From: Yuukianura sp. NJ FZ-2021
Taxonomy: Eukaryota
DNA: 64,000 nucleotides
Assembly (NCBI GenBank): GCA_046563655.1
Contig: CM102286.1
Span: forward strand, 9,424,001-9,488,000
Reading direction: 5' to 3'
How positions within the stretch are numbered: the first letter of the stretch is position 1; each line of letters opens with the position of its first letter. Shown in pieces: positions 1,090-27,400 of this stretch. The position numbers and the translations under genes were made by a program. The notes beneath the pieces are model-generated. The model was not told the origin of the DNA and did not search any database. It worked only from the letters and a program-made list of their open reading frames with translations.

Positions 1090-1141
1090 GACGGTTACTG
1101 CCGAAAGCCTGGACCCAGACTAACACTACTTCACATTCAAC

Positions 1142-7120: not shown

Positions 7121-7237
7121 CACCGGCTGCCCAAGTTTTATTCACCCCTCACTAAAATCTTTATTTACCTAAACACACTATGCCCCTACTAAACGTCCAA
7201 TGAACAAGAACCTCGCAAATCCAAACGTTTAAGAAAT

Positions 7238-8665
7238 TTGGAACCCAGCCCACAAGAACCTCTACCTAGCCGCAATATCCCAAAACCCAAAAGAACCAAT
7301 ATTATTATAAATATCCACACACCAGCGACTGTCGCCCCCCCTCTAACACCCTCTAAAACGGAATCCTCTGATTTATTTCAGACCCCCAACACGTCTCCTT
7401 CTCAACTTAATACCGATTCTACTGTTTTATCTCACACGTCACTAGAGGAAAGTAAATTTTTTTCAGACAACGATATAACTATAGTGGCTCGCAACCCCCC
7501 ACCCACGCCGATTGCTCCCCAGAGATTATCCCTAGTTTCACTGGATAGAATCCTAGACCAAGATATTTTTCCAACAGTCACAGTTAATCACAAAATTCAC
7601 ATACCCACAACCGAACCGAATACGTCAACAATGGCCACCACCAACGCACTTGTGACCATTCATGAGAAAATTGCTAAGTACACTGCAACATTACTATCTC
7701 GACAAGAGCTCGAGATTTTCCTCAATTTATTTGAGATATGGGCCCAACAAAAGAATCTTAGCGACCCGCAAGCCAAACTACAATTACAAATGGCTATCCC
7801 CCTCAAGGTCGCACAACAGTGGTTCGCGATTAACAAGAATCTTATCAATGACGCAACCACCTCCTGGGCTTTATACAAAACTACATTTTTAGAAGGATGC
7901 CCCACTGAGAATGGCGATGACGACTTGTCCTTCGCCGAAATCATCTCTAAATCTCAAGGTCACAAAGAAAAGGCGACTATTTTCATTCAAAAAATCCGAT
8001 ATTTTTTTGGGACCCAATGGGGGAACTACCCGGAGAAAGAAATTGTTAAAGGCATGGTTCATCAGTTGAACCTGAATACGCGGCGATATATCGAATGCCG
8101 CGGGGTCCCCGAGACATATGCCGAATTAATGCGGCAATTGCAGCAGTACGAAGCAAAAGGCGGGGTTCAAGACATTGATAATATTACCGTTAAAACGGAA
8201 ATACCAACACATCTTATACAAACTGACCAACTGAAAGAACTAGAAGAATCCATTAAAAACATGAGTATCCTCCTCACCCAAACACGTCCCGAACGGCAAC
8301 CCTATTTTCGAGGATTCCAAAGCGAACCCAACTACCCCCCACGGCCTAGAAACCTAAATCCGTGGTTTCGACAAAGTTTTCAACCCCGCTTTTTTACTCC
8401 CCGAACCACTCCACGCACCCAATACAGACTACAAGACTTACCGGATTTACAAGTTAATACGGCTAACGGTGCTCGCACTGTGGCTCGAACCTATCCACAA
8501 GGATCCCGGGGAAATGAACCTCGGCCAAAGTGCGGATATTGTGGACGCTTAGGACACATCACCGCTACATGTTATTTAGCAGCACGCCACCGCAACGGGC
8601 GCCCACCCGTGTTACACACATACTTCAGTGCAAGGACATTGTATGCCCTTGCACTGAGAGTGTGA
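7238..8665 (+). pseudogene. gag: Gypsy-type gag, truncated; no pol follows
   Basis: Pro/Ser/Thr-rich N-terminus, capsid-like helical core (AQQWF...WALYKTTFL) and CCHC knuckle CGYCGRLGHITATC. The likely start ATG (~7180) is out of frame. The last ~18 codons (from 8610) read into unrelated LTR-like DNA. Confidence 0.8.
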
Positions 8666-8697
8666 GTGTGTGTGAGTGGATCTATGAATAAACGACA
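8610..8697 (+). repeat. Truncated LTR-like fragment related to the 387-506 LTR
   Basis: Starts TGTTA; hairpin TCAGTGCAAGG...CCTTGCACTGA centred on CATTGTATG, the same core as in the first LTR; TGAATAAA at 8685-8692. Confidence 0.55.
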
Positions 8698-9190
8698 CAT
8701 TTATTGTGTGGTAAAACTACAACGGAGTGGGGGATGCATCTGATTTTCTCAAAAACCACACCTCCCAAAGAAACATGGTTTAGCCAGTAAAACTGAGATG
8801 GAAAGTTCCCATCTCAGTTCCATGTGCTAAACTAACATAACTAATTTTTTTGTCAAACCGCATTTTGCAAGGCCAGATTTGTTGACAATTTTTGTGTGGT
8901 AAAACTACAACGGAGTGGGGGATGCACTTGACTATGAAACTCAACATCTCCAGAGTCTCAACAAATTACTCAAAAAAAAGTTCAACTTTAGAAGCACTGA
9001 TTCCTGGCTAGAGACACATCAGGGTGGGAATGAGGAGTGTGAAATGCATCTGATTTTCTCAAAAACCACACCTCCCAAAAAACATGGTTTAGCCAGTAAA
9101 ACTGAGATGGAAAGGTCCCATCTCATTTCCACGGGCTAACCTAAGATTACTAATTTTTTGTCAAACAGCATTTTGTATTTGTTGACATTT
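8698..9190 (+). repeat. Left subterminal/TIR repeat block of the Polinton
   Basis: Two copies (the first internally deleted) of a ~310-bp unit that is the imperfect reverse complement of 26650-27250. Confidence 0.85.
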
Positions 9191-9255
9191 TTAACCGCAA
9201 ACTCTTTACTTGTGAGGAAACTTGTGAGGGGAGGTTGGGGTGTCATTTTTTAACA

Positions 9256-9282
9256 TATAAGAGCAACGAAACTGAATTCAGT
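9256..9282 (+). promoter_or_regulatory. Putative TATA + TCAGT initiator for the pPolB gene
   Basis: TATAA at 9256-9260 and TCAGT at 9278-9282, just upstream of ATGs at 9309 and 9327. Confidence 0.4.
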
Positions 9283-9326
9283 TGTTCAAATACCTTGAAC
9301 CAGTACACATGCAGGGGAGGAGAAAA

Positions 9327-12300
9327 ATGTCTGGTTTCAGTTCTAGTAGATTTTACTCTTGTGACAGATGCCAATTGCAAAATTTAGGTGCACAACAATT
9401 CTTACATCACGTCCAAACAACCCATCTGGACATTGAAATACCTGGTAAGCTTAAAACAATTGAGACAGAAATGCGCATTGTAATAAAAATTCTTGTTACA
9501 ATAGGTGAATTGTTAGAAGACATTCAAACTGAACATTATGATACCTCGGGAGCATTCGCTGGAAGACAGTACGGATGTGAAACATGTAACTTGAGGGGTC
9601 TTTCTGAACGAGATTTTATAAGTCACATTCAACAAGTCCATCCAAGTATTCAATTACCAGGTATTCGCAAATTAGCAATTCGAGAGCACAGCATGTTTTA
9701 TTTGTTGTTGGTTATTTTTAGGTCTCATTGCTGGTACAAGTAGTTCACGGTCGGTATCTGTACCACTTCAGCACCAGCCGACGGACGGTTAGGATGTCAT
9801 GATGATGAAATTTTTTTGTAAAAATAATCTTGTCTTTCAATTTAGAACGAGAAGCTGTTGCGTTGGAATTGAAGAATTACAAGAGACGATTTTGTGCGCA
9901 GTGTGGAATAAATTTTGAGTATCCTGGGCAGTTGGATGAGCACCAGTACAATACTCACCCAGAACTGTATCCTTCTGTTCAAAACCAACAGGGCGGAAGT
10001 GCTCCAGAGAATGAAGTACATTTCGATGAATTGAGTGCTTTCCGCGGTACCACTCGTGAGTATACCACAACGTTTGATGAAGATGTGTTTGTGGATGTGG
10101 CTGGTGTCTTTGCTCACTGTTCAGCAACTTTGCGGGAATTGATGAGAAGGACTCATGGGGAAATCGGGTCGTACTTGGTGAGCAGTGTTGCACTAGTAGA
10201 AATGACACGACAAGTTCATGGAAGTAACACTGAACAACAAGTCGAGGATTTTCCATTCCGTTCATTTACGCACATCACCTTAGAACCCAGAATGATTCAA
10301 AATACTCTTCGGCTTATGTCAAATAAAATTGGAGATACAATAGCCGTATTCTTGAGGAAGGGCTCTGGATGGCGTGTTAGTCGATTCAAATGGATTACAT
10401 TCAAATTTTCAGTGTACCGAATGCAGCGTGGAAATGGCTGGATTGCGACGCCTGCGCATATGACAAGGAAAGGATGTGTTGTGAACATTAGAAATTCTGA
10501 TGACCAGTGCTTCAAATATGCAATTTTGTCGGAGTTGTACCCGCTGTATAAGAATGAGTCTGCTCACTGGTATGAAATTACGGACCCCAGAAGCTACGAC
10601 AATTTTCCCCATTCAGTGGACTGGGATTGTATCCAGTTTCCCATGGATTTTGAGCAAATGGACAAGTTTTTACACTTTAACCCTAAACTTTCCGTGAATG
10701 TGTATGGCTATGAAGCTGTGGATGAACTAGATCCAAATTACGCAAAACAGAAAATGAAAGTGTTTCCGTTATATGTTTGTCGTGAAAAAAGACAAAAGCA
10801 CATTGATCTGTTGTTATTAATTGAAGGATGCAACTCGCATTTTGTTCTGCTAAAACAAACGGAGGACAATCCTTCGTTTGGTTTATCTCGTCTGTTGGGA
10901 AGAAATGAGCGCTGCAATGAAAAGTACATTTGCAACTTTTGTCTTCATTTTTGGAAGTCCAAGGCTACACTAGAAAGACATCAACTTTTTAGTTCCGCTG
11001 TGGAACCCCAGGGTGTATGCTTTCCACCAGAATTCAAGTATACATTCAAGCACATTCGTCACACACTTCCTGTGTCGTTTGTCATTTTCTGTGACTTTGA
11101 GTGCATTTTACGACAAGAAAGTGGAACAATGCGGATTGGAACTGTGCTCAATGAACACGTAGACTGTGGCTACTGTTTTGTCGTTGTAGGACCAACCGGT
11201 AGGATGTGCACTGAACCGTTGACGTTTTGTGGTCGAAACGCTGCTCAGCATTTACTAGAAGATTTGGTGAACATAACCGAACAATATTTTATAAAATTGA
11301 AGCAGGATGTTGGACGCGACCCATCATACACTGAAATTGATTTTTATAATATGAGAACAGCTGCCACGAATTGCAACCACTGTGGTGTTCAGTTTCAACA
11401 TGTGAGAGACACAGTAATTGACCACTGTCACCTCACGGGACGTATCAGAGGAGTGAGTTGTAACAACTGCAACATACAACTTCAAGTCACCAAAAAAATC
11501 CCCATCATTTTTCACAATTTTCGAAACTATGACTCTCACTTCATAGTTCAAGCGTTGAAAAGCAACTTGTTCAAACATGTTTTACCTCTACCTACGTCAG
11601 AAGAAAAGTTTACATCTGTGGAGTGTACAACTCATGCCGGAAATGCACTCAAGTTTGTAGACTCTTATCAGTTTATCAGTTCCAGCTTGGCAGACTTGGT
11701 GGAAATGATGGCGAAAAAGGATGTGAACAAGTTCCAAGTGACCAAAAGTGCTTTTCGTCATCATCCAAGAGCAATGACTTTTTTGCTTCAAAAGGGGGTC
11801 TACCCATACGAGTACATGGACAGTTTTGGAAGGATGGATGAGACTGGACCGCCAGGCAAGGAAGCATTCTACAGTGAATTGAGAGGGGAAGGAATTTCCG
11901 ACGAAGATTACGAAAGAGCACTGAAGGTGTGGGAAGAGTTTGGGTGTAGAACCTTGAGAGACTACCACAACCTTTATGTGAAGTTGGATGTTTGCTTGCT
12001 AGCCGATTGCTTCCAGGACTTGAGAGATACGATGATTACAAATTTCCGCTTAGACCCCGCTCATTACATCACCCTTCCAGGAATTGCATACGATGCTGCA
12101 ATGTTGATTGGAAGAGTCGATTATGACTACCTGAAAGTGGATGACATGTACATGTGGTGTGAGAGGGGAATTCGAGGTGGAAACTGTGCCGTAGGACTTC
12201 GATATGCCAAAGCAAACAACCCCTACATGGGAGCTCAATACGACCCCTCGAAACCAACCAGCTACCTGTGCTTGTTGGACGCAAATCTTTTGTACAGTAC

Positions 12301-13651
12301 ATGTTTGAGATGCTACGTTCCGTGGAAGAATTTCCGATGGGATCCAAGCTTCGAGGCACGAACCGCAGATTTGGAGAGTGCAGTTGCAAGAATTTTGAGG
12401 ATGGGAGATGAGGACAGAGAAGGGCTCATTTTGGAAGTGGACTTGGACTATCCGGATGAACTGCATGATCAGCACAATGACTATCCTCTGGCAGTAGAAC
12501 GAGGAATCATTGAATATGAAAACTTGTCCCCCTACACAAAAAACGTGATGGATAATTTGGGTGTTAGTCCGACCTCAGTCAACAAATCCAAACTGATGGG
12601 GACCTTTTACCCAAAGAAAAATTACATTATCCACTATAGACTGCTCAAGTTGTTTTTGCGGTTGGGGCTGAAGATGTCAAAAGTACATCGAGCGCTTCGA
12701 TTCACACAAGCGCCTCTTATGCGTCCCTACATTGAAATGTGCATCGAGAGAAGGAGAAGTGCCACAAATCCTGTTGATGTTAAGTTTTGGAAAGCGATGG
12801 GTAACATTGTGTTTGGGAAACTTTTACAAAATGTTCGAAAGCACAAGAGAATTAACATTGCGCTGACTCGTCAAAAAGTTTTCGAGTATGGAAAAAAACC
12901 AACTGTGAAACGTTTCAAAATTTTACACGAAGAGTGCGTTTTGTTCATGATGAAAAAGCTCTCAGTTTGCTTAAACAAACACATAAGTGCTGGACTAACA
13001 GTTTTGGATGATAGCAAACGAATCATGTACGATTTCTACTACAATGTGATGCAGAAAAAGTATGGAGAGAACATGAGGCTGGTTATGACGGACACGGACA
13101 GCCTCCTCTTGCATATCAAGACTCCAGTTCTCTACCAAGACTTTTACCAAATGACACAAGATCCAGATTGTCGACTTGACACTTCCAACTATGATCCCAA
13201 GCATCCGAAGGTTGGACACTTGTCTTCCCAGCAACATCAAAGAAAGTGCGGCTACTTCAAGGACGAATTTGCCAACTCAATTGTAACTGAGGTGGTTGCA
13301 CTCAAGCCAAAACTGTACTGTGTCCGCTCTCTTGACCAGAACAGCATCGTCTCGGATAGAAAAAAAGCCAAGGGAACGGTGAGAGCAGCGGTGAGAAATG
13401 AACTCCGTTTTGAAGACTATCTTTGTGTTTTGGACGAGTCATCTTCACTCAGCGTAAAAATGACAACAATTCGAAGCATGGACCACCGAGTGTACACTAC
13501 GACCGTATGTAAACAAAGCCTTTCCGCCTTTGAAGACAAGTCTGGCTACTACATTTCTCCAATTGAGTTTCTCCGATTTGGTCACTACCAAATCCCAATG
13601 TACCAACAACAAGAAGAAGAACAACAGGAACAAATGCAACAACAAGTTTAA
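9327..13651 (+). CDS. polB: Protein-primed family B DNA polymerase with a spliced N-terminal triple C2H2 zinc-finger leader; predicted exons 9327-9444, 9505-9660, 9722-9787, 9846-13651 (~1381 aa)
   Basis: ExoI DFE, ExoII HNFRNYD, ExoIII YVKLD; Pol motifs DANLLY, KAMGNIVFGK, TDTDS; endonuclease VII-like insert (CNHC...DHCHLTG...CNNCN). The large ORF has no ATG at its start, and three GT-AG phase-1 introns join the upstream exons in frame. Confidence 0.92.
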
Positions 13652-13742
13652 GTCCTAATATAAGCCAATTTAATAAATATTTAAATTTTAGTTTGAATTT
13701 GAACGTTTGACCAATAGCAAGTGTTTAAAAGTTGAATTAGAG

Positions 13743-14399
13743 ATGAGTTTTCATTTCGGGCTGAGTCATCCGTTTGTGATGGTTTGTGCAGGAGCCACGC
13801 AATCTGGAAAGAGTACATTAATTCATCAATTAATTTTGAGAAAGGATGAAGTGATTGAGCCTAAAATTGAGCGAGTAATCTACTGCTACGGCGAAGATTT
13901 GCCTTCGATTGCAAGTTCTGTGCATGAAGCTTTCAAGGACAAGGAGGACGTTTGTGTGGAATTTCAAAAGGGTATGGAGGTGGACGTGGTCGAGGGGAAC
14001 CGAGTTCCCACTCTCGTAATTCTCGACGACTTTATGGAAGAGATTGCAATGTCCAAGGAAGTTTGCACAATGGTGACACGAGGGAGTCATCATAGATCAA
14101 TGTCTCTAATCATTACAATGCAAAACTTTTTCTACAAAAACTGCAGAAACTTGACGTTAAACAGCAAATACTTGGCGTTATTTCGAAATCCAAGAGACTC
14201 TACAATTGTTCAGTTTCTGGGAAGACAGATGAACAATGGAAAAAGTCATCCCGTCCTTGAAGCTGCTTACGAGGATGCAACCAAAAACAAGCCAAACAGT
14301 TACTTGTTTTTGGACTTGAGTCAACAGCAGGATGACGAACACCGTTTCCGTTCAAATCTTTTTCCCGACCCGTCATGCATCGTCTATTTGAAAAAATAG
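13743..14399 (+). CDS. Polinton packaging ATPase (A32/FtsK-like)
   Basis: Walker A GATQSGKST, Walker B LVILDD, and RGSHH...ITMQN motif. Confidence 0.93.
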   Translation: MSFHFGLSHPFVMVCAGATQSGKSTLIHQLILRKDEVIEPKIERVIYCYGEDLPSIASSVHEAFKDKEDVCVEFQKGMEVDVVEGNRVPTLVILDDFMEEIAMSKEVCTMVTRGSHHRSMSLIITMQNFFYKNCRNLTLNSKYLALFRNPRDSTIVQFLGRQMNNGKSHPVLEAAYEDATKNKPNSYLFLDLSQQQDDEHRFRSNLFPDPSCIVYLKK

Positions 14400-14417
14400 A
14401 TTCAAGGTAACTTACCC

Positions 14418-14942
14418 TCAAGTTCGTTTGAGTTCTAGTAGTCCTTGAACTAGACAGTCAAACAAATCTGCAGGAATGCAGATTCCAACACCCGGTTCCG
14501 ACTGGTTTCGGATGTGAAGATACGAGTTGTCTGTAGTATTTCCAAGATGATCAGCAAGAAACAGGGTCCATCCATTCTCGAGCATGACTTGAGGTGGAGG
14601 TAGAGGATTTGGGAATTGCTTGCGAATCTCCACAATCATGGGAACCGATGATACTTTGCGGGTGTGGGCTGGATAATGCTTCTTTTTCTTTTGACGAGTT
14701 GAGTGTAGAGTGTATGGTGGAGAACTTTCGTGACCTTCCATGTCTTCGGATGGTACAAAGTTTGGTCCCGGAGTAGCCATTTCTTGAGTTGGATGAAGTT
14801 TCACAGATTGTCCTCGTGACGATTTGTTCAAGTTGCAGTTGCAAGAAAAGGATTTACACACTGTGATTGTAGTTGTAGAATTCCGTTTACACAAAAATTC
14901 CGAAAATGATCTCCAGATACTAAAAATGCAACCACAGTTCAT
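14418..14942 (-). CDS. Small protein with a PC4-like ssDNA-binding C-terminal domain (start may be ATG 14780)
   Basis: C-terminal YLHIR...GICIP..LF..L pattern resembles the PC4/Sub1 fold; lies directly downstream of the integrase on the same strand. Confidence 0.5.
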   Translation of the reverse strand: MNCGCIFSIWRSFSEFLCKRNSTTTITVCKSFSCNCNLNKSSRGQSVKLHPTQEMATPGPNFVPSEDMEGHESSPPYTLHSTRQKKKKHYPAHTRKVSSVPMIVEIRKQFPNPLPPPQVMLENGWTLFLADHLGNTTDNSYLHIRNQSEPGVGICIPADLFDCLVQGLLELKRT

Positions 14943-14960
14943 CACAAGTCGACTGCAAGG

Positions 14961-15893
14961 TTAGGAATGAAGAACTTTCTGGAGTTCCGGATCATAAAAT
15001 ACACCAAATATGAACTCTCCTTTCAAATCCTGAAGCTGATAGCTGATTGGAGTAGTATAAAAAACTTTGGAAACCTTGAACTGCTCTCGATTCCAAGACC
15101 TAGAGTAGCCTTTTTCAAAGATTTTCTTGATTTTACTAATTAGAACAGTGTCCCCAACGGAAAATTTCGTCTTTTTACGACGTTTCACGACTCTGTCATT
15201 GTAGAGATTTAGAAAAACGTCAGTTTTCGTTTCTTCGTTGACTTGATTTGGTGTGCATTTGATGGATGAGTGGTATGAATTGTTGTAATTCTCAACGATC
15301 GCAGCCAGGACGTCGTAAAATTTTTCTGTGCCCTTGTATGTCATGTAACGAGCAATTCTATTCATAAGAGTCTGATTGAATCTCTCTACAATGACCGCCT
15401 TCAACTCGGATCCTGTACTGAACATGTGGATTCCATGCTGTTTGAGTAGCTTCTCCAGAGTTTTGTTGATGAATTCTTTGCCCCGGTCTACTTGTAAGTA
15501 TTTGCAAGGTCCTCGCTTCTCAATAATCTTTGCCAAAGCATTCCTTACAGTGGGTGCATTTTTGTTTTTCAGAGGGATTGCATCCGCAACTTTACTAAAC
15601 CCATTGATGCAAGTCAACAAGAACTTGTATCCGTTGTTTGAGTCGCTATACTTGCTTACGTCAATCAAATCTGCAACCATTTGTTGCTTGAGTCCAGGAA
15701 TGAATACTCTTCTCCTAGGATATCTTTTTCGAGCGCGTTTGTGCAGAGTATAAGCAGGGATGGAAGAGAGTGACCGCTCGACATCCTTTGAATGATTTTT
15801 CAAACTTTTTTTAACTTGATGTGCACCCGAAAAGCTATGTTGGACATTTGGATTTACGTAATTCTCTTTGATTTGTTTGTCTAGCTCTGACAT
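14961..15893 (-). CDS. int: Retroviral-like (rve) DDE integrase of the Polinton
   Basis: YTLHK motif; catalytic ADLID / VDRGKEF / VERFN; YNNSYHSSI; C-terminal F.VGD.V.IS...FEKGY...W. No chromodomain visible. Confidence 0.95.
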   Translation of the reverse strand: MSELDKQIKENYVNPNVQHSFSGAHQVKKSLKNHSKDVERSLSSIPAYTLHKRARKRYPRRRVFIPGLKQQMVADLIDVSKYSDSNNGYKFLLTCINGFSKVADAIPLKNKNAPTVRNALAKIIEKRGPCKYLQVDRGKEFINKTLEKLLKQHGIHMFSTGSELKAVIVERFNQTLMNRIARYMTYKGTEKFYDVLAAIVENYNNSYHSSIKCTPNQVNEETKTDVFLNLYNDRVVKRRKKTKFSVGDTVLISKIKKIFEKGYSRSWNREQFKVSKVFYTTPISYQLQDLKGEFIFGVFYDPELQKVLHS

Positions 15894-15995
15894 ATTTACG
15901 ACTAAGTCAAAAAACCTCAAGCGTCATGGTCTTATTTGTGGGGCAGCTTCTTGAAGGAAAAGGTTCATTGACGCCCAACTCTTTGGCTGGTCAAC

Positions 15996-16361
15996 ATGTC
16001 CAAGTGTGTAGCGCAAAACCGAGAATTTTTGAGCTATTTGTCCAAAGCAACGTCACCAAAGCAGCGGCGAGAATTGATTAAAAACGCAAGCAGAGGAAAT
16101 TCAAGGCATTTGTGAATGTATACTCAACGTATACAAAGGGAACGTGAGCGTCAAGGCAAGCACTGTGAAACGTCTCAAACCCTTCAAGAGAACAATTCTA
16201 GCTCTAATCAAGGGGCGACGCAGGTCGAGTCTCAAGTTTAAGAAAAACGACTGTTGTGTCAAAGGGGGGGAGCGATACTACCTCTTTTGTTGGGAGCTGT
16301 ACTACCGTCTTTAGTTAGTACTGCCGTAGGATTTTTCAAAAAGAAAACTCAACCACAATGA
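15996..16361 (+). pseudogene. Conserved small basic Polinton protein with two frameshifts
   Basis: Reconstructs as MSKCVAQN...KNA/AEEIQGICECILNVYKGN...LKFKK/RLLCQRGGAILPLLLGAVLP...*, with frameshifts near 16090 and 16245. The stop overlaps the next ATG (ATGA). Not in the ORF track. Confidence 0.7.
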
Positions 16362-17365
16362 AACGGATGAGATTAGTCAACGAAACAGATTTTCAAAAAA
16401 TTCAGCAACTGCAACATACTAATTTTGCTGGAAATTACGCATCTCTTTCTCCTGCGGCTGCTGAGTTGGATCCAAAACAAAGCATTTTGTCAAATTCAAA
16501 CATTCCAGATGACATAAAAGCCATATTATATCAAGATTTGGCCCGTCGTCTCCATCAAAAACGTCAAATTTTGGAATCCAAACCAGTTTTGGTGAAAAAT
16601 GTTGGTGGTAGCAACGACCATGAACATGAGGGATTTCAACAAGACGACAATGAATCAAATTTATTATACGGTACTCAACTTGGAGATAGTTTAATTTCCA
16701 ACCCCAGCATCAGAGTTGAGAATCTTCTAGATGTTACTGAACCATACATTTTGGAGCAACTGAAGGGGAGTAAAAATGCAAGAAAACTTTTGCATCTGAT
16801 GCGCTACAATGATATTGTTTGGAATGAAAAGTTTGAAGTTTTGATTCAAAAGCAACGTCTACCAGGCTCTGACATTGTAAGCATTCTACAATATTTCATA
16901 AACCTCAAGGATCGAAAACATATTCGAGCTCCCGAAGGATTCATACAAGTCCGAGACCAATTGCAGAGGTACATTTCTCCAAAAACTTCAGATGCATCTG
17001 CTCCAAACTCTGGAATATCACGCCTAATCACTTCCCCAGCAATATTTTTTGACCAAAGACAACAACAACAACAAGAGCAGAACCCGGCGGGATCAAATTA
17101 TAATACACCAAGTGCTAGCCAGAATGAAAGAATAACCGATGAAGAGGATGAGGAGGAAGAGGTCGAAGACGTTTTTGAACAAAACCCCCAACCGCCATTT
17201 CAAATTCATCGTCCCTCACCTACTCGACCTAAAGCTACACCTATTGCAAAGAGACTTGTAAGGAGAGCTGCTAATCCAACTGGAAAAGATGTATTCCGAA
17301 GAGGAGGGACCAAGAGTCAAAAAGGGGGAGGAGGAGGAGGAGTCTGTCGTTGGGAAAAGTTTTGA
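16358..17365 (+). CDS. Conserved Polinton protein of unknown function (335 aa)
   Basis: WN...E......LPGSDI..L......PEGF motif of the kind seen in Polinton conserved ORFs; acidic/basic low-complexity tail ending W-x-x-F. Confidence 0.75.
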   Translation: MKRMRLVNETDFQKIQQLQHTNFAGNYASLSPAAAELDPKQSILSNSNIPDDIKAILYQDLARRLHQKRQILESKPVLVKNVGGSNDHEHEGFQQDDNESNLLYGTQLGDSLISNPSIRVENLLDVTEPYILEQLKGSKNARKLLHLMRYNDIVWNEKFEVLIQKQRLPGSDIVSILQYFINLKDRKHIRAPEGFIQVRDQLQRYISPKTSDASAPNSGISRLITSPAIFFDQRQQQQQEQNPAGSNYNTPSASQNERITDEEDEEEEVEDVFEQNPQPPFQIHRPSPTRPKATPIAKRLVRRAANPTGKDVFRRGGTKSQKGGGGGGVCRWEKF

Positions 17366-17464
17366 AGGAAAGGTGGAGTCGGAGGCAAGGTCCCCCTTGC
17401 GCGCGCGAGAGGGACTGATCGGGCAGCCGAACGTTGAGGGGGGAAGCTCCTGCGTGATCATTTT

Positions 17465-17730
17465 TTAAGGATTCGTGCTCTGCGATTCAGTTTATTCGTG
17501 CTTTTGCTTCTTTTGGATCAACACAAACTGTTGAGAAAAGATTTTTTGGATTCGTGCCAACCATACTTGTGGATTCGAGCTTACAAATCTACTCATCCCT
17601 GCCTACGTTTTTTTTTGGATTTGAGGTACGTATATTTAGATTAAAAGGATTCGTGCTAGCAATTTAAAAGGATTCGTGCTTTACATATTTATGGATTCGT
17701 GCTTTCATTTAAAAGGATTCGTGCTTTGAC
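17465..17730 (+). repeat. Cluster of ~8 GGATTCGTGCT motifs upstream of the capsid module
   Basis: Motif or 1-mismatch variants near 17469, 17494, 17548, 17571, 17647, 17670, 17693 and 17716; the last four have ~23-bp periodicity. Confidence 0.8.
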
Positions 17731-17736
17731 GGCAAG

Positions 17737-18675
17737 ATGATGACTGCAACTGGTTCGAGTACATCCAACTCTTTCTACGTAACACTTCAATCGAATGCTT
17801 CGATGGACTATTTTCCAGGCAATCTAATTTGTGATTTCAAGAATAAATTGGCAAGTTCCATCAGTCTGCCTGGAGATCAATTGGAGGTGGCCCTGACCGA
17901 CTTGAGCTATACTTATGGAAACGCGTTTGTCGGAGCAGGAAGAACAATTTTTACGAAACGGGTCCAGTTGCCACCACCATCTTTCGTCGCTGCCCCAACA
18001 GGTGCAGAGACAGTCGCTGCTGCTGTACATGATTTGGATATGAATGACAAGAGCATTTCGTTTCGAGAAAGACAGCGTCGCTCTGCTAATCAGCGTGCAT
18101 TTTCACCTCCAAAAGTTTTGGAAATTCCAATGAAAACACACCGACGTTTGATGACTGACACTCAACTGTTGAGTTTTCTGCACGATATGCTACCCAACTC
18201 TCAGTGTCGAATCGAATCTAGCATTTTCAAGTATCGCATACCCTTGAAGGAGGGAACGACAATCAAGTTTTCTCCACAAGTAGCCGACATTCTGGGGATG
18301 GGTGGAGGAGAATTGCAGATTGCGAACCAAATCGTCCGAGGAGCCCTACCTGCAGATGGATTCTCTCTATACGAAGGAGAAGGCGCTTATCCAGTCTTTT
18401 TGAATGCTGGACAAACAAAACTTTTCGTCTACTGCAACCTAATCCGGCCTCAATTCATTGGAGATGCTCTTGCACCAATTCTTCGAGTGGTCAACTATGA
18501 GGGAAAATTTCGAAAACAACACTCTCATGAATTCACTCATGCACACTACATGCAGCTGGCCGTCTCTCAATTTGATACGATTCATTTGTATATAATGAAC
18601 GAGGCGGGGGAGAGAATGCCATTCGAGTTTGGTAACCTCACCGCTACACTTCGTTTTCGTGAACGCAAGACATGA
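17737..18675 (+). CDS. Polinton minor capsid (penton-like) protein
   Basis: N-terminal FYVTL.SN.S...FP.N...F...L...EVAL and C-terminal LFVYCNLI..Q..GD...P.LR...Y......FDTI......G...PF......TL.F motifs. Confidence 0.85.
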   Translation: MMTATGSSTSNSFYVTLQSNASMDYFPGNLICDFKNKLASSISLPGDQLEVALTDLSYTYGNAFVGAGRTIFTKRVQLPPPSFVAAPTGAETVAAAVHDLDMNDKSISFRERQRRSANQRAFSPPKVLEIPMKTHRRLMTDTQLLSFLHDMLPNSQCRIESSIFKYRIPLKEGTTIKFSPQVADILGMGGGELQIANQIVRGALPADGFSLYEGEGAYPVFLNAGQTKLFVYCNLIRPQFIGDALAPILRVVNYEGKFRKQHSHEFTHAHYMQLAVSQFDTIHLYIMNEAGERMPFEFGNLTATLRFRERKT

Positions 18676-19282
18676 GGTCATCGGCTGGACTCTCGTCCCT
18701 ACCTTACAATTGTGCTGGAGACTTTCCTGCAGATGCATTTTTTTCACAAAATCAATTTGGTAGTGGGTTTTCCCCAACTACAATCTACTTTAGTGGGGTT
18801 CGTCGTCAAAAAGGTTAAAAAAAGCAAATAAAAATTTAAAAATGTAATAATTTTGAAAATGCTGGTTTTTGGAGTTTGGTCGTATCAATTATTCAATTTT
18901 ATGTGACCCGTCAGGGGCTGGTCTTGGAGGAGTTTTTGGTGCAATTGCACGGCAACTTTTTCCATTTCTTAAGCAGTACGTACTGCCACATGCGGCGGAT
19001 GCCGTAGGAGGTGTCGCCTCGGACTTAATTTTGAACAAAAGACCAATCAAGGAATCTCTGAAATCGCACGGCTGGGAAGCACTTAAGAGTATGGGTAGGG
19101 ATGTTATGAATCAGACGGGTTCGGGCATTCGAGGTGTGAGGTCAAGGAAGCGACGCATCAAACGACGAGGAAAACCAGCATACGGTCCAAAGCGAAAAAA
19201 GTCAAGGAAGGTTAGGAGCAAAAACAAGCGGCGTCGTACAAAGAGTCGTAAGAGAGTCGGTGGTACGAGGTACATTTTCTAA
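18672..19282 (+). CDS. Polinton core-like basic protein, spliced (exons 18672-18813 and 18915-19282; ~169 aa)
   Basis: ATG overlaps the penton stop (ATGA). A 101-bp AT-rich GT-AG intron restores F.G..RQKG/AGLGG.F...R..P.LK; three QxGxG motifs and an Arg/Lys-rich tail. Confidence 0.78.
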
Positions 19283-19283
19283 A

Positions 19284-20633
19284 ATGCCACGCGTAAAAAC
19301 AACAAAAGGGTACGGTGGAACATCATCAGGGCCGGCTGCGCCATACACTTTTATCCGTTCAGAAACAAATTTGTTTGAAGAACCTGCCTTTGATGTCAGC
19401 CTTTTGTCTACAATTCAAACCGAATATCATCCAATTACATCTCTGGCGGACAGTTTGGCACCCGTCGAATTTTATATTCAAGGAAATGATACACATTTTT
19501 TGGACTTGTCCGAGACAAAGTTGTACGTCAAGGCAAGAATTGTTGCTGAAAATGGATCTGCTCTGACGGCGGAGGAACTTGTCGCACCTGCAAACAATTT
19601 TCTCCATACCCTGTTTCAGCAACTCAGCGTTTATTTCAACGAGACTCTCATCACACCATCCTCAAATCAATACGCTTACCGAAGTTACCTTGAAACTCTA
19701 CTCGGCTACAACAAGGAATTCAAAAAGTCGCAAGCACAGGGTTCTCTATACTACAAGGATAAGGATCCCAGCAACAAGAGCACAACAGTGGAGGATGGTT
19801 ATAAAACTCGATTCGATTTGACAAAGGGAAGCAAAAGTGTGGAATTGATTGGGCGTCCATTTGGAGACATTTTCGCACAAAACAAATTCCTAATTCCTGG
19901 CATTGATGTTCGCATCAGCTTCTTACGATCCTCTCCTGCATTTTGTTTAATTGCTGACAAAGCAGATGGAAGGTATCAAGTTCAAATTTCTGAGGCAAGA
20001 ATCATTGTTCAAAAGCATACTCTTCTTCCCTCACTCGTGACGTCAATCCTCAAAGAGTGGGAGCTGGGGCGATCAATTACATATCCTCTTCGTCGGGTGG
20101 AACTCAAAACCTACACGATTGGACCTGGGAGTTTGCAAAGCATAAATGAAAATCTGCTGAGTGGGCTCCTTCCAGACAGAATAATTGTTGGACTTTTGGA
20201 ATCGGAAGACTACATGGGAACAATCACCACGAATCCCTACAACTTTTCACACTTTGACTTCAACCATCTCAACGTAACTGTCAAAGGAGATCAAAGTTCA
20301 TCTCTGGCTATGCATTTGGATTGGGAAGGGGATCAGTACATACAGCTCTACAACAATCTTTTTTATGGACTTGGAATGTCCAACGAAGATGTCGGAATTG
20401 ACATGACCAGAGCCGAGTACAAGAAACAACCTTTGATGATTTACAACTTGCGTCATGTCCGCGAAGGCTTTGCACCTCCAAAACATGGAAATGTGAAAAT
20501 TGAGTTGAAATTCAAAAAGGCTGTGGCCAAGGCTATTACTGTGATGGTCTATGCCGAATACCAGGCAGTTCTCTACATTGACTCGAGCAAGAACGTCTTT
20601 TGGAAAGATTACAGCACCACCAGCACCGGTTAG
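19284..20633 (+). CDS. Polinton major capsid protein (double jelly-roll type)
   Basis: SE..LF, YHP....P.EF.I.G....LDL..T.L, NNFLH.LF.Q, Y.YR.Y.ETLL.Y, LPDRI...G motifs; ~449 aa; located before the protease. Confidence 0.9.
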   Translation: MPRVKTTKGYGGTSSGPAAPYTFIRSETNLFEEPAFDVSLLSTIQTEYHPITSLADSLAPVEFYIQGNDTHFLDLSETKLYVKARIVAENGSALTAEELVAPANNFLHTLFQQLSVYFNETLITPSSNQYAYRSYLETLLGYNKEFKKSQAQGSLYYKDKDPSNKSTTVEDGYKTRFDLTKGSKSVELIGRPFGDIFAQNKFLIPGIDVRISFLRSSPAFCLIADKADGRYQVQISEARIIVQKHTLLPSLVTSILKEWELGRSITYPLRRVELKTYTIGPGSLQSINENLLSGLLPDRIIVGLLESEDYMGTITTNPYNFSHFDFNHLNVTVKGDQSSSLAMHLDWEGDQYIQLYNNLFYGLGMSNEDVGIDMTRAEYKKQPLMIYNLRHVREGFAPPKHGNVKIELKFKKAVAKAITVMVYAEYQAVLYIDSSKNVFWKDYSTTSTG

Positions 20634-20638
20634 AGACG

Positions 20639-21166
20639 ATGGAGACGCGACAAATTTTCACCTACCTGTCATCATTTTTGAAGCCAACGCAGGCCACGTT
20701 TCGAGTCATTCCGTGTGACTATTTGGATCACCTTGAGGTTGAACGTTATCCTCTGCTGCTAGTTGTCAATTCGGATCCATCCACATCTCCTGGAAGTCAT
20801 TGGTTGGCCCTGTTTCGAGAAAATTCCAAAGCTCCCCTCAAATTCATCGACTCGTACGGGATGGGAGTAGAGTTTTACGACAAGGCCTTTTCCAACTTTG
20901 CATCTCGGCTCCAGACTTCAATTGTGGAAAACATCCGGACTCTTCAAAGCCCAAACTCTCAAGTGTGTGGAGAATATGCAATCTATTTTCTATACAAGCT
21001 TTACCACACTTGCTGTCTAATGTCCATCTACTGCAACTTCCATTCCAATTCCAAAAGAAATGATATGCTAGTTAGACAATTTGTAAGAAAAAAGCTTAGG
21101 AGACTCTCAAAAAACTCTTCTCCCTCCTCATCTAACCTTAATCAATGCTGTACTCCATTCAGTTAA
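20639..21166 (+). CDS. Adenain-like cysteine protease
   Basis: N.D.....G.HW, F.DSYG, Q.....CG.Y motifs (His-Asp-Gln-Cys). Confidence 0.92.
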   Translation: METRQIFTYLSSFLKPTQATFRVIPCDYLDHLEVERYPLLLVVNSDPSTSPGSHWLALFRENSKAPLKFIDSYGMGVEFYDKAFSNFASRLQTSIVENIRTLQSPNSQVCGEYAIYFLYKLYHTCCLMSIYCNFHSNSKRNDMLVRQFVRKKLRRLSKNSSPSSSNLNQCCTPFS

Positions 21167-21370
21167 AAAAAACAAATAAAATTTCCAAAATCCAATTCTC
21201 TTTTTCGTTCCGAATCAAGTAAAAAGATTAAAATTTTATTTTAACCACCAAGTGAAAAGAGAGAGAGGGAGTTTTAGTCGTGTGGGACGTGTTCCAGCTC
21301 CTGGTTGAAGGTTTCAATGCCTCTGAGACAAGTCTCCAGAGTCGTCTTGAGGGTTGCCACTTGTTCCGAC

Positions 21371-22162
21371 TAGGGGTCGCAAAGTCGAACGAAATCTGAA
21401 AGTCGACTTTCGACTCTGGGAATTGAGCTTCGACTCTAGAGTCGACTTTGGAGTCGACTTTTAACCTTCAATAGAATGCCCCGAAAGAAACCTAAAAATC
21501 GCATTCCAAATCCGCATGATTTTCAAAAATACACGGATTTCGGATTTCTGCGGACCAAATATGGTTTCTGATCCAGATTTTTCGGGCAAACACTCATGAA
21601 TAATTTTTTTTTTTTTTAAATAGTTTTTTTTAGGTTTTTTTTTTTTGTTTTTGTAGCAACAAAATAGTGGGGTTTAAGCACCGAAGCGGAAATGTTGATT
21701 CAAGACTATTCAAATATCTGCACGAAAACTGCGAAAACTTAAGAAATTCTTTTTGTTCAAATCTATTTTTTTTTCTAAAAATACACATTTCGAATTTCGA
21801 TATTTTGCATATGGTTTCTAGAATTTGTCTTTGGTGCGAACTTAATTCGCAGGTTCATTAAAAATTTCCACAAGTTCCGTCAATGCTTTAAACTAAACTC
21901 AAATCCGGATTCAAAGTCTTCAAACCCGGATATATACATCATATTTCGAATACACCCAAAAGGAAAATAGCTAATTTGTTTTCAATTAAATGATTTACAG
22001 TGCTTAGGCATTAAGTTGCATGTCGCTTTCCTAGGCTCAAATTACCTCATTTTTTAAGGCAAAGTCGAATTTCGAAGGTTGTAAAGTCGACTTTCGACTT
22101 TCCAAAAAATGGTCAAGAAATCGACTTCGACTTTACTCGAAAAGTCGACTTTGCGACCCCTA
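21371..22162 (+). mobile_element. Non-autonomous hAT-type DNA transposon (MITE), copy 1
   Basis: TIR TAGGGGTCGCAAAGTCGA, 8-bp TSD GTTCCGAC, many subterminal AGTCGA(CT) motifs, no coding capacity. Confidence 0.92.
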
Positions 22163-22345
22163 GTTCCGACCCTCCTCCAGTTGTCCTCAAGTAAAAGGTT
22201 GAGAGTCGACGCAAAACGTACGGGACGGAGCTGACCTCAAAGTTGACCGTGTGCTTGTTTCGGCGAAAGTAGACCCAGTGGTACATCTTCCCCTTGTACA
22301 TGGTCTCCCTGCTGAAAACCGACAACCGCTTGTCCTCATCAAAAG

Positions 22346-23132
22346 TAGGGGTCGCAAAGTCGACTTTTCGAGTAAAGTCGAAGTCGATTTCTTGACCATT
22401 TTTTGGAAAGTCGAAAGTCGACTTTACAACCTTCGAAATTCGACTTTGCCTTAAAAAATGAGGTAATTTGAGCCTAGGAAAGCGACATGCAACTTAATGC
22501 CTAAGCACTGTAAATCATTTAATTGAAAACAAATTAGCTATTTTCCTTTTGGGTGTATTCGAAATATGATGTATATATCCGGGTTTGAAGACTTTGAATC
22601 CGGATTTGAGTTTAGTTTAAAGCATTGACGGAACTTGTGGAAATTTTTAATGAACCTGCGAATTAAGTTCGCACCAAAGACAAATTCTAGAAACCATATG
22701 CAACATATCGAAATTCGAAATGTGTATTTTTAGAAAAAAAAATAGATTTGAACAAAAAGAATTTCTTAAGTTTTCGCAGTTTTCGTGCAGATATTTGAAT
22801 AGTTTTGAATCAACATTTCCGCTTCGGTGCTTAAACCCCACTATTTTGTTGCTACAAAAACAAAAAAAAAACCTAAAAAAAACTATTTAAAAAAAAAAAT
22901 TATTCATGAGTGTTTGCCCGAAAAATCTGTATCAGAAACCATATTTGGTCCGCAGAAATCCGAAATCCGTGTATTTTTGAAAATCATGCGGATTTGGAAT
23001 GTGATTTTTAGGTTTCTTTCGGGGCATTCTATTGAAGGTTAAAAGTCGACTCCAAAGTCGACTCTAGAGTCGAAGCTCAATTCCCAGAGTCGAAAGTCGA
23101 CTTTCAGATTTCGTTCGACTTTGCGACCCCTA
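22346..23132 (-). mobile_element. Non-autonomous hAT-type DNA transposon (MITE), copy 2, inverted
   Basis: Reverse complement of copy 1; same TIRs; its own 8-bp TSD ATCAAAAG. Confidence 0.92.
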
Positions 23133-23441
23133 ATCAAAAGCCGCATCGCTGGGAGCAAACATTCTCACGTCCAAAGATTCGTCGTCTGAAACAAAGAAGA
23201 AAAAAAAATTTTTTTAAACTTTTGAAACATTGCAACTTTCCAAATCAAATTTGTACGGAGAGAGAGTTTTGTTTTGACTTACTTTGATCGTTTGACGCCA
23301 TTGGTGCCAACAAAACAAGTAGTAAGAGTAGTGTTGAGATGGTGAAGGTTCGAGTAGAAATGAAGTGGAACATGAAAGAGAAGAAGGGTAAAGTAGAAGA
23401 AGAAAAACGATTTGGGAGTGTGGGAAACTGCTGACGTTGCT

Positions 23442-23974
23442 TCAGTTGGAGCTTGGAATTTCTTCACTCTTACTAGCATCAACTTCGTCTTGGTTCTTGG
23501 AATCCCCGTCATCCACTGAGAACGTTGACAAGTCGTTGAGGTCGTCAGAAGTTGAACCATGCTCGGAACATAGCCAATCATAAAATTCCACGTCATCTAC
23601 TCCTTCCCCAAACCTCCCAACTCCCCAAACATCTTCTTTCCATTTGTCTTCCTTCATTTCCTTCACCCGATGAAGAATCTTACTTTTTGCAGACTCACCA
23701 GCGTACCTCAAATCCCTCTGTTTGTTCAAGTAGTCAATGTTCGCCTCTCCCACAATTTTTTTGAATTCTGGAAGGTTTTTGGACTGTTTCCGGCATGAAT
23801 GTAGCACTGAATTAGTTTTTCAACGATGAAAGGAGTGTCCCTCATGAGGATTTCCGCATGCCAGCCATCTCTCTTGAATGTGACCTTCTTCTGCCAGCTG
23901 AATTCGTCTCGTGTGTACCAACACTTCAACTCCTTCCCTCCCTTCTCACTTGGGTAGTATCGCCCGGATTCCAT
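23442..23974 (-). pseudogene. Orphan Polinton gene with one frameshift and an acidic C-terminus
   Basis: Overlapping ORFs 23726-23974 (MESGRYY...) and 23442-23807 join with a single frameshift at ~23760-23810. Confidence 0.55.
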
Positions 23975-24055
23975 AATTTTATTCTTCTTAAATTTGAACA
24001 TCTTTGGTCGAGTGATAAAGTAGAACTGACAAATTTTTTCTCCAAAATCACTGTC

Positions 24056-25719
24056 CTAATCCGAAAAGTACAAGTTGTGGAGTTCCGGATAATATCGTTG
24101 CCGCTTTCCATGTATTCGACTCCTCCTCTCCTCCTTATCATACTCTGAAATCAGCCTCCTCACCTTTTTCACAAATTCTTGTTTTTTCCGACCCTCTGGG
24201 AAAGTGAAATGGCATACGGATCTTGGATTTCGTGTTGGATGTACACTTGCCATGCCCAAGTTCCGTCCAGCATAAATTATGTCCGTCCACAGCCGATCAT
24301 CTTCGTCATTGTTAACAAACGAGGTTCCGGAAATATCTTCCAACCTCAAAATCTTTAAACTCTTGCATTTTTTTACAATGTCAAGAAACACATATGCATT
24401 CACTCCGCATGTGTCGTCGTAACGGTCGCCAAGTTTAAAAAGGCAGAGTGTGCCTAAATTAGGTAAAGCAGCCACCAAATTGACGAGATGTTCTCTTTCC
24501 ATCCGACAACGGCCGAGCACCAACTTCCTCAAACAAGGTGGTACAACCAAGTTTAGTGTTGCTGTGAAATATGGATTCCTGATTCCAAACCCTGGATTAA
24601 ACGCCAAACGACTTGTACCTTCAAAATGAAGTGACAACTTCAACAAGGACGTACAATCCTTCACCCAATCCAAATTTCCAAGGAGTCCATGGTCATAATC
24701 CAGATATTCAAACCGGATCCTCTTCAGTGTGGATATTGAATTTTTCACAATTGTAGCTGCTTCCTGAAGATTCAAGGCTTCCAGCCCATGCTTGAGTTCT
24801 TCGAAAGAATTCGGAAGGGTGAAGAAGATCCTCCAAAGTGGGTGAATTAACCTGCATGTGGCTGGGTACATCGCCATGGTCCACATGAAACTTTCAGAAT
24901 TTTAAGATTTTGAAACTTTTCCAGCTTTGTATTTGAAACAAGTTGCGTAATTTCCTCTTCAACAAACTTTTTCACACCACCGCATTCGATTGTTAGCACT
25001 TGGAGGGTGTCGGAATGTAAATTTAGGAATTTGATCACATCACGGAGGTTGTCCACATCCATCAGTTTTCCCTCAAAACTAAACTGTTGAAGTGTAGAAA
25101 TTTTGAAAGGGGACGATGTAACAGTCCTGAATATTGTTGGTATATGCGGTTGGTCAGTGTGACTCTCCCCACGAATCTTCAAACACTTCAACTCCTTGAA
25201 TCGCTTAAACACAGTTTCGTATGCAAAGTTTTCAGTCTCCTCAAAGAGATTCTCATACTGGTGGTTGTAGTTGAAAATGATGGATGTTAGCGACGTACAA
25301 CGTGCCAGAAATTTTCGAATAAGTGGGGCATGTCGCACTTCAAAAAATTCAATTTCACGAATCTTGTCGATGTGCTTCAGCTCCAGAAAATCAGAAACAT
25401 CCTCCATCTGGGGATTATGTGGAAATACTCGAAGCGTAAGAGAACGAATCCTTAGGTTCCAGTGAGGGCGGATCAAGTCAATTCTCATACCAGCTCCAAC
25501 AATATCAACATCGAAGGCGGCTACACCATCGACGACATTTTTCAATTTGCGAGATGTTTCCCTCAGATTACACAAGTCCTTGTTGTCCAGTTTCTTCATA
25601 ATCAGTCCCAAAATCTGTTGCAAAACAGTCAATATGTCACAAGGAGCAAATTCTTATTAGTATTATTCATCATTTTCAAAACTGAAAAGTAATCTTACCT
25701 CATTTGGTAAACCCTCCAT
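24056..25719 (-). pseudogene. F-box / LRR-like cargo protein (exon 1 25719-25699, intron 25698-25615; one frameshift at ~24890)
   Basis: Splicing gives MEGLPNEILGLIMKKLDNKDLCNLRETSRKLKNVVD, an F-box consensus. Followed by LxxLxL repeats (CTSLTSI, LKCLKI, LKILKV, LRKLVL, LPNLGTLCL, CKSLKILRL). Confidence 0.8.
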
Positions 25720-26278
25720 CTTGTTTAATCACAAAAAGAACTTAAGAATTTTGCGGAAGGTTGTGTCTCAACTTTTTCTGTGGTGAACAACAAAGTACAA
25801 GTTGTGAACAAGTAGTTTTCAAAAGATTTAGTTTGAAGAAACTTCTTTGTGAACTATTCGGCAGCAACTGAACTGTGGATTTTCTTCAAAATGTTACCCT
25901 GTTTCCTCAAATGTTAGAGTTACAAGTTCCAAACCACACTCTCTTCAGGAGTCTAAATGCGAAAAAATCCTCCCAAAAAATCCCGACACAAATCGAGGGG
26001 GAGGGGGATGATATGTGACGACCACACACTCTTCACAACAGTGACATAAAGTGAGGGAGATTGTAGGTTTGGGCAACTCATCTCACAACCAAATTGAACA
26101 AAAAAAAATTACTCCTAAGAAGATTCGAACTCAAAACTACAAAACAGAAGACTATTGCTCAATGAATCAACAGCGAGCTCGTACTCCACCAGGGCAGTAG
26201 CCTTCTGACTAGAAACTTAAACAATTTTCTTCCAAGTTCAAAGTTCAAGTTTTACTTCTAGATGTTTAACTAACTTAA

Positions 26279-26520
26279 AAATCCCGAGACATAAACAGCT
26301 TATTGTCATTTTCACAGATTTTTTTTGCCTCCTCCAAACATTGAAAACCTCATATGTACATTTTAAATTAGTAATGAATTGAATCTATTTTAAATTTTAA
26401 ATCCCGAGTAATATACAACTTATTGTCATAACTTTTGAACACTGTTTCTTTTTCCTAACAACAATTTTTAACCTCATATGTACATTTTCAATTAGTGAAG
26501 AAATATTGAATTAAAATTTT
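26279..26520. repeat. Diverged tandem duplication of ~120 bp
   Basis: aaatcccgag...cttattgtcat...aacctcatatgtacatttt.aattagt occurs twice in tandem. Confidence 0.75.
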
Positions 26521-26649
26521 TTTAAATATTTAACTCAAACTTTGAACTACTAGACAAAACAAAACATAAACTAATGGTCCGACTCCTCCCCTGTCACAAG
26601 AGTAAAATCAAGAGTAAAGGTTTTCGAACAACTAAACTCAGTTTCGTTT

Positions 26650-27400
26650 TTCGTTTAGCCCGTGGAACTGAGATGGGACCTTTTCATCTCGGTTCTACTT
26701 GCTAAACCATGTTTTTTGGGAGGTGTGGTTTTTGAGAAAATCAGATGCATCCCCCAGTCCTCATTCCCACCCTGATGTGTCTCTAGCCAAGAAGCAGTGC
26801 TTCTAAAGCTGAACTTTTTTTTTTGAGAAGTTTTTCGAGACTCTGGAGATGTTGAGTTTCATAGTCAAGTGCATCCCCATTCCGTTGTAGTTTTACCACA
26901 CAAAAAATGTCAACAAATCTGGCCTTGCAAAATGCGGCTTGACAAAAAAATTAGTAATCTTAGTTTAGCCCGTGGAACTGAGATGGGACCTTTCCATCTC
27001 AGTTTTTCTGTCTAAACCATGTTTTTTTGCCAGGTGTGGTTTTTGAGAAAATCATATGCATCCCCCAGTCCTCATTCCCACCCTGATGTGTCTCTAGCCA
27101 AGAAGCAGTGCTTCTAAAGCTGAACTTTTTTTTTGAGAAGTTTGTCGAGACTCTGGAGATGTTGGGTTTCATAGTCAAGTGCATCCCCGACTCCGTTGTA
27201 GTTTTACCACACAAAAAATGTCAACAAATCTGGCCTTGCAAAATGCGGTCGTATACTCTTCTCCACTGGGAGAAGGAATGACATCATCATTTTCTCATGC
27301 ACTCTGAAAGCGCAAGTGGGTCATGTTTACATTTTTTTGACTAAAGTTCAAGTTTGTTTTTGTTATTGTTTTTACTAGTAGTCATGCGATGGTTACTACT
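26650..27400 (-). repeat. Right TIR/subterminal block of the Polinton
   Basis: Two ~310-bp tandem units (26653, 26963) inverted relative to 8698-9190, plus ~150 bp of unique terminus ending in ACTACT. Confidence 0.88.

Follow-up and report, generated by a model that had tools for sequence, protein, structure and literature searches.

Predicted spliceosomal introns, mostly shared with related copies, in a Maverick/Polinton element of Yuukianura sp.

Can the genes of a Maverick/Polinton carry spliceosomal introns as heritable parts of their structure and, if so, in which genes and from what source? The question is raised by a stretch of 64,000 nucleotides (nt) from Yuukianura sp. NJ FZ-2021 (assembly GCA_046563655.1, contig CM102286.1, positions 9,424,001 to 9,488,000 of the forward strand), hereafter the window, in which such an element, spanning approximately positions 8697 to 27400, encodes a protein-primed family B DNA polymerase (pPolB; gene polB), an ATPase, an integrase, two putative capsid proteins and a protease. 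An earlier note on this DNA had described the element as intron-rich, with six introns in at least four genes, and had proposed that its lineage uses host-sized introns even in core viral genes. Our analyses support, with high confidence, a reading in which the six segments would be ordinary U2-type spliceosomal introns of three different origins, carried by Mavericks that have long resided in this lineage of animals.

The six predicted introns were recovered in four genes (Table 1): those of an orphan gene, of an F-box gene and of a gene called core-like for the basic tail of its product lie exactly where the earlier note had drawn them, and the three of polB are now positioned. All have GT...AG ends, a length of 58-101 nt and a GC content of 0.24-0.34, against approximately 0.42 in their surroundings. 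Host myosin introns have a median length of 86 nt (10-90% range 66-199) and a mean GC content of 0.27, against which the element introns are indeed host-sized, the three polB introns lying at the short edge. With a splice-site matrix derived from 79 of the 85 host myosin introns called (six with a GC content of at least 0.40 were dropped), the six donors ranked at percentiles 93-100 among 433 GT sites of the coding DNA of the element, and the six acceptors at percentiles 86-100 among 501 AG sites. Left unspliced, the frames meet a stop after 138 (polB), 48 (core-like), 18 (orphan) and 18 (F-box) codons. The closest sister copy differs from the window copy at 39 of 353 intron sites, counted over the five introns that can be compared, and at 79 of 1419 exon sites, about twice as much in introns (Fisher p = 5e-4). 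Group I and group II self-splicing introns need a structured ribozyme core of several hundred nucleotides, for which 58-101 nt are far too short.

Most introns stand at the same places in related copies. The Maverick families of this genome are named here by capsid identity, as A (~97%), B (86%), C (~60%), D, E and F. At the core-like site the homologues run on without interruption, skipping the intron instead of aligning through it, an outcome that answers the refuting condition of the earlier note in favour of an intron, and polB introns 2 and 3 are missing from family B; no intron-less Maverick homologue was seen for the sites of polB intron 1, of the orphan gene or of the F-box gene.

The core-like intron is the strongest case of the six. 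The gene sits between the minor and major capsid genes, in the slot of the PW gene of vertebrate Mavericks (PMC8097293); an intron-less paralogue of it matches a Preplasmiviricota cluster with a score of 0.96, and we found no literature that names the PW-slot gene pVII. Spliced alignment to intron-less homologues places the intron at the same codon, in phase 1, in all seven A copies (the window copy included) and both B copies, with a length of 98-101 nt in A and 117-120 nt in B and with unrelated interiors between the two families; GT-AG outscored the CT-AC and GA-TG controls in all nine. It was not found in 12 loci of families C, D, E and F, two of which barely span the site, and homology to both exons is contiguous in L013 and in the metagenomic P0001, L121 and L122. 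The capsid tree joins A and B in a clade with support 100, and the intron was found in these two families alone, so that the simplest history would be a single, lineage-specific gain, at an AG|G site, before the two diverged.

The three polB introns all lie within a zinc-finger leader whose exons 1 and 2 are paralogous (0/2000 shuffles). Introns 2 and 3 vary among sister copies by lengths that are not multiples of three. Intron 1 is a stop-free multiple of three in the window copy and in four of its five closest sisters (the fifth did not fit the pattern), so that its case rests on orthologues, which have a stop or a length that is not a multiple of three in all four A2 copies and in B. The number of leader introns, read by eye, is three in A1, four in A2, one in B, two in C1 and three in C2, in phase 1 throughout, a pattern that would be expected of symmetric-exon duplication and loss. 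Fingers precede polB in D, E and F too, and one may guess that they bind DNA or the terminal repeats. Copies of A2 (L084, L087, L089, L090) show an extra short phase-1 leader exon resembling the end of exon 1, their catalytic region being 95% like that of the window. Upstream of polB in family C (L026, L028, L032, L093, L094, L096-L098) there is a motif that resembles a BIR (apoptosis-inhibitor) domain.

Regarding the F-box gene, the intron occurs at the same site after the LPxE motif, in phase 0, in copies of A, of B and in one of C (L015, L019, L120, L023, L031). Of 30 host F-box loci, 10 have an intron at this site too, the rate at random positions being 100 of 3600 (2.8%), and for this reason the intron probably came in with a captured host gene rather than being gained by the element. 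The F-box genes of L027, L029 and L033 appear, when read by eye, to hold a second intron after the F-box. In the orphan gene, a phase-1 intron after a short first exon was found in B (L023) and in C (clear in L027 and L031) and the second exon is conserved, which suggests an intron older than the split of A, B and C. The orphan protein has no Pfam family, no Atlas match of at least 0.9 and no match among PDB sequences; its predicted model has a pLDDT of 61 and a best fold match of Z 6.0, and Pur-alpha/Whirly chains (Z 4.2-4.9) appear among unrelated rows, so a PC4/Pur-like fold is only a lead.

Positions, conservation, intron-less paralogues and the pattern of divergence thus argue for U2-type introns, and the following course of events may be proposed. 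The element would multiply as DNA through a polymerase and an integrase of its own, as established for the family, and an intron once gained would consequently pass to daughter copies. Host Pol II would transcribe its genes in the nucleus, and the host spliceosome would then process the transcripts. Since the unspliced readings are truncated, splicing would be needed for full-length products, and selection would keep the splice sites while the interiors drift. The three origins would be the gain of the core-like intron, the capture of a host F-box gene as DNA together with its intron, and, for polB, growth and shrinkage of the N-terminal leader through duplication or loss of phase-1 exons. The proposal that this lineage uses introns accordingly holds in that they appear inherited along it; the F-box intron is the part that does not fit, as it looks inherited from the host gene.

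Several observations weigh against this reading. Among the splice sites, the core-like acceptor reaches only percentile 86, three A2 copies (L016, L087, L090) have CG instead of AG at the acceptor matching polB intron 2, and the orphan acceptor is uncertain in L029 and L033. Intron 1 of polB can be read in frame throughout the A1 copies matched, and the divergence of polB intron 3 (0.048) is no higher than that of exons (0.03-0.09). In the leader exons, non-synonymous changes relative to B and A2 are as numerous as synonymous ones (11/11, 15/15, 15/11, 20/12); the main polB open reading frame (ORF), which counts in favour of the reading, has 191 synonymous versus 82 non-synonymous codon changes. 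Furthermore, no A sister keeps the first exon of the orphan gene, and a search for close host paralogues of the F-box/LRR protein yielded none, five of its six matches being in Maverick copies (the window included) and one at another locus.

Different explanations might account for the same segments. One of them, which we regard as unlikely, is that the introns are regulatory: the core-like intron would hide the polyadenylation signal of the minor capsid gene, the choice between splicing and intronic polyadenylation would set the output of the structural genes downstream, and retention of intron 1 would give polB a longer leader. Indeed, the AATAAA inside this intron is the first after the minor-capsid stop, eight of the nine core-like introns of A and B contain one, comparable signals follow polB (13672) and the protease gene (21175), and none of six intron-less relatives has an AATAAA within 430 nt of the end of the minor-capsid match. 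However, the motif appears in 21% of shuffles of this A-rich intron (1067/5000), it sits at 14-17 in A and at 37-47 in B, and the copies, one of them devoid of the signal, do not count as independent. A wider form of the idea, also unlikely, is that the Mavericks of this animal form a radiation which has come to depend on the spliceosome and goes on gaining introns gene by gene, and that the core-gene intron of A+B switches the structural-gene cluster between splicing and polyadenylation, as in the processing of adenovirus late units; were this so, the intron-free capsid and protease genes would reflect constraint on late, high-level expression.

An origin from introners (intron-generating transposons), as in dinoflagellate polinton-like elements, seems improbable. 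Introners occur in ~25% of dinoflagellate viral elements (PMC11957031) and several insertion sites here are AG|G-like, but the six introns are mutually unlike, none has visible terminal repeats and, among the Maverick loci compared, their matches are confined to the corresponding sites of sister copies, bar one 17-nt low-complexity match; old introner products would have lost such signs, which leaves room for an ancient origin of this kind. It is likewise quite improbable that the core-like intron is ancestral and was repeatedly lost in C, D, E, F and the outside relatives: the branching of C and D is weak on the capsid tree (42-68) and a catalytic polB intron at position 776, common to the non-sister groups D/E and F, indicates that introns here are sometimes lost, or gained in parallel, whereas an ancestral intron would require several losses instead of one gain. 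Finally, insertions or frameshifts with chance GT-AG ends in a dead copy are a highly improbable source, since true decay events vary from copy to copy and these introns keep their positions and phases, with unalignable interiors, in families 86% and ~60% identical in capsid protein and in sisters with 97-99% identical terminal repeats (one with intact ends and target duplication), even though the window copy is decaying (two insertions of miniature inverted-repeat transposable elements (MITEs), frame breaks near 16092, 23779 and 24855, truncated left end) and Genewise labels insertions in degraded Mavericks as introns (Barreat & Katzourakis, PMC8097293).

Returning to the extent of U2-type introns in these elements, the term intron-rich overstates the window copy, in which catalytic polB (a single 1280-codon frame), the ATPase, integrase, minor capsid, major capsid and protease genes have no intron; the claim of introns in core genes stands for the polB leader and the PW-slot gene and falls for these. 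Both the term and the general proposal fit other families better. Using the numbering of the main polB ORF of the window, an intron at position 776 of catalytic polB was found in all 13 D, E and F loci covering it, further introns of D/E at 816 (7/8 loci) and 1083 (8/8), and F-specific ones at 530, 554, ~840 and 869 (5/5 F loci). These introns (L034-L052) are short, low in GC and GT-AG, and GT-AG beat the controls in all 13 loci. Similarly, there is an ATPase intron in five of five F loci and an integrase intron in three of four E loci; none was found in the major capsid gene (0/9 loci) or in the protease gene (0/12). Position 776 is shared by groups that are not sisters on the polB tree and is missing from A, B, C, L053 and the outside homologues, which would be explained by independent gains at an AG|GT site or by several losses. 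Calls of the aligner near polB 290-300, 420-430 and 590-600, in frame and mostly GC-rich (0.4-0.56), were rejected as protein inserts or misalignment, and so were a 43-nt call at polB 367 and two long calls in the minor capsid gene of L036.

Like vertebrate Mavericks, the lineage has pPolB, ATPase and integrase genes, the order minor capsid-PW-major capsid-protease, terminal inverted repeats (TIRs), AGTAGT//ACTACT ends, a 6-bp duplication, a similar size and an accessory region; unlike them, it has most genes on one strand, and introns in polB and the PW-slot gene, the genes of intact vertebrate elements being reported as intron-free (Barreat & Katzourakis 2021, PMC8097293). As in nematode Mavericks, intron-bearing host-type cargo, here F-box/LRR-like, lies near a TIR, but those elements are described with intronless core genes and introns in cargo only, whereas polB and the core-like gene are also predicted to be spliced here (Widen et al., bioRxiv 10.1101/2022.07.12.499685). 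The polymerase matches PF03175 with 26 bits (cut-off 25.8). Its 16 homologues include one from the adintoviruses, labelled Ladona dragonfly adintovirus PolB (24% across the part used as query). A term search of the adintovirus paper, as far as its text was available, found no mention of splicing and a single 'intron', that of a group II maturase (Starrett et al., PMC8502044), and the outside PolB homologues are uninterrupted. Dinoflagellate polinton-like elements do contain spliceosomal-type introns, which belong to repeated introner families and were mostly acquired after integration, in contrast to the unique introns apparently inherited with the element lineage here (PMC11957031). Cryptophyte polinton-like viruses are described as carrying group I introns. 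Among DNA-replicated elements, CACTA and mollusc Tc1-like cut-and-paste transposons reportedly have spliceosomal introns in essential genes; they have one or two genes and no polymerase or capsid module, unlike the element of the window. Our literature search retrieved no report of inherited spliceosomal introns in core genes of animal Mavericks, the older founding papers and Repbase, which may record spliced ORFs, lying outside that search. Intronless core genes are a descriptive, non-diagnostic Maverick trait in the literature, from which the polB leader and the PW-slot gene depart; the departure appears real and inherited, and modest in the window element.

The consequences concern, above all, how Mavericks are surveyed. 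A survey of protist Mavericks used a prokaryotic gene predictor on the grounds that endogenous viruses 'do not contain introns' (PMC10120064), and another discarded pPolB ORFs shorter than 900 aa (PMC10748475). As such surveys assume unbroken ORFs, spliced lineages would appear in them as truncated genes or as pseudogenes, and Maverick diversity and intactness may thus be underestimated. The earlier suggestion that annotation restricted to ORFs misses these products needs rewording for polB, which would be truncated (1169 aa from the first Met at 10142) rather than missed; the core-like gene would indeed be mangled. Inherited intron positions may also serve as independent markers of ancestry and module exchange. 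Introns would point to transcription in the nucleus and to a long stay in the host, both relevant to whether animal Mavericks live as transposons or viruses, and a compact, many-family system with dated gains would be tractable for the study of intron origin.

Table 1. Features of the Maverick/Polinton element in the window (positions counted from the first letter of the window; introns and gene structures are predicted).
Feature	Position	Strand	Remarks
Polinton/Maverick, family A	8697..27400	.	left end truncated; right end ...GGTTACTACT at 27400, end motif also closing an intact-ended sister
left TIR, surviving part	8697..9192	.	90-92% match to 26650-27249
polB exon 1: ATG and C2H2-type finger	9327..9444	+	zf-C2H2 E 0.012, below cut-off
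polB intron 1, 60 nt, phase 1	9445..9504	+	stop-free multiple of three here
polB exon 2: second C2H2-type finger	9505..9660	+	E 2e-4, below cut-off
polB intron 2, 61 nt, phase 1	9661..9721	+	57-71 nt in 5/5 A1 sisters; missing from B
polB exon 3, short linker	9722..9787	+	
polB intron 3, 58 nt, phase 1	9788..9845	+	57-62 nt in 4/5 A1 sisters (pattern match); missing from B
polB exon 4, no intron	9846..13651	+	third finger, endonuclease-VII-like insert (PF02945), whole catalytic protein-primed PolB (PF03175)
packaging ATPase, no intron	13743..14399	+	Pox_A32, Adeno_IVa2 matches, below curated cut-off
conserved ORF, no Pfam family	14418..14942	-	
retroviral-type integrase, no intron	14961..15893	-	rve PF00665 E 2.4e-11
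small conserved gene, frame break near 16092	15927..16345 (limits approximate)	+	
conserved 335-aa ORF	16358..17365	+	
putative minor capsid gene, no intron	17737..18675	+	named from gene order; stop overlaps ATG of core-like gene
core-like (PW-slot) gene exon 1	18672..18813	+	
core-like intron, 101 nt, phase 1	18814..18914	+	contains AATAAA at 18827
core-like gene exon 2, Arg/Lys-rich tail	18915..19282	+	
putative major capsid gene, no intron	19284..20633	+	
adenain-type cysteine protease, no intron	20639..21166	+	Peptidase_C5 E 0.002, below cut-off
orphan exon 2, three pieces due to MITEs	21240..23185 (3' limit approximate)	-	
MITE 1, TAGGGG ends, 8-bp target duplication, inside orphan gene	21371..22162	.	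absent in L017, L100
MITE 2, 99% like MITE 1, opposite orientation, own 8-bp duplication	22346..23132	.	
orphan intron, 97 nt, phase 1	23186..23282	-	
orphan exon 1, six codons and one base	23283..23301	-	
accessory gene, frame break near 23779	23442..24010	-	
F-box/LRR-like gene exon 2, frame break near 24855	24056..25614	-	PF00646 E 1e-5
F-box intron, 84 nt, phase 0, after LPxE motif	25615..25698	-	
F-box exon 1, seven codons	25699..25719	-	
right TIR region with internal duplication	26650..27400	.	adjoins 183-bp satellite

The ATPase and protease genes agree with the identification as a Maverick: their profile matches all score below cut-off, yet they stand in the expected order. The putative major capsid protein matched nothing in Pfam, NCBIfam or PDB sequences, and has 61 homologues, one of them labelled F54H12.2-like, presumably a marker of the Maverick capsid. 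The window element keeps its right end (ACTACT) and part of both TIRs, the loss of the left end making the target duplication unreadable; a sister on contig C10 has AGTAGT//ACTACT ends, a 6-bp target duplication and TIRs of ~1290 bp at 97% identity. The Maverick population of this genome is large and diverse. Across 98.7 Mb, 96 matches to the capsid gene and 98 to polB were counted, many of them clustered on contigs C10, C5, C3 and C8.

The two MITEs, 183 nt apart in one small gene, are hAT-like, with 13 of 17 genomic matches at full length; two sisters do not have MITE 1 at its site, and no sister keeps the region of MITE 2. Around the element, the window holds an intact-looking BEL/Pao polyprotein ORF of 1714 aa (1124-6268) and a gag-like ORF without Pfam match (7193-8665) that adjoins the truncated left TIR; the BEL/Pao element and the myosin repertoire of the genome both indicate an animal host. 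Directly at the right end of the element there are ~80 copies of the 183-bp satellite (27400-42000), followed by an array with a period of ~487 bp, judged from ORF spacing (42000-62000); the terminal sequence of the element (27377-27400) resembles part of the array region.

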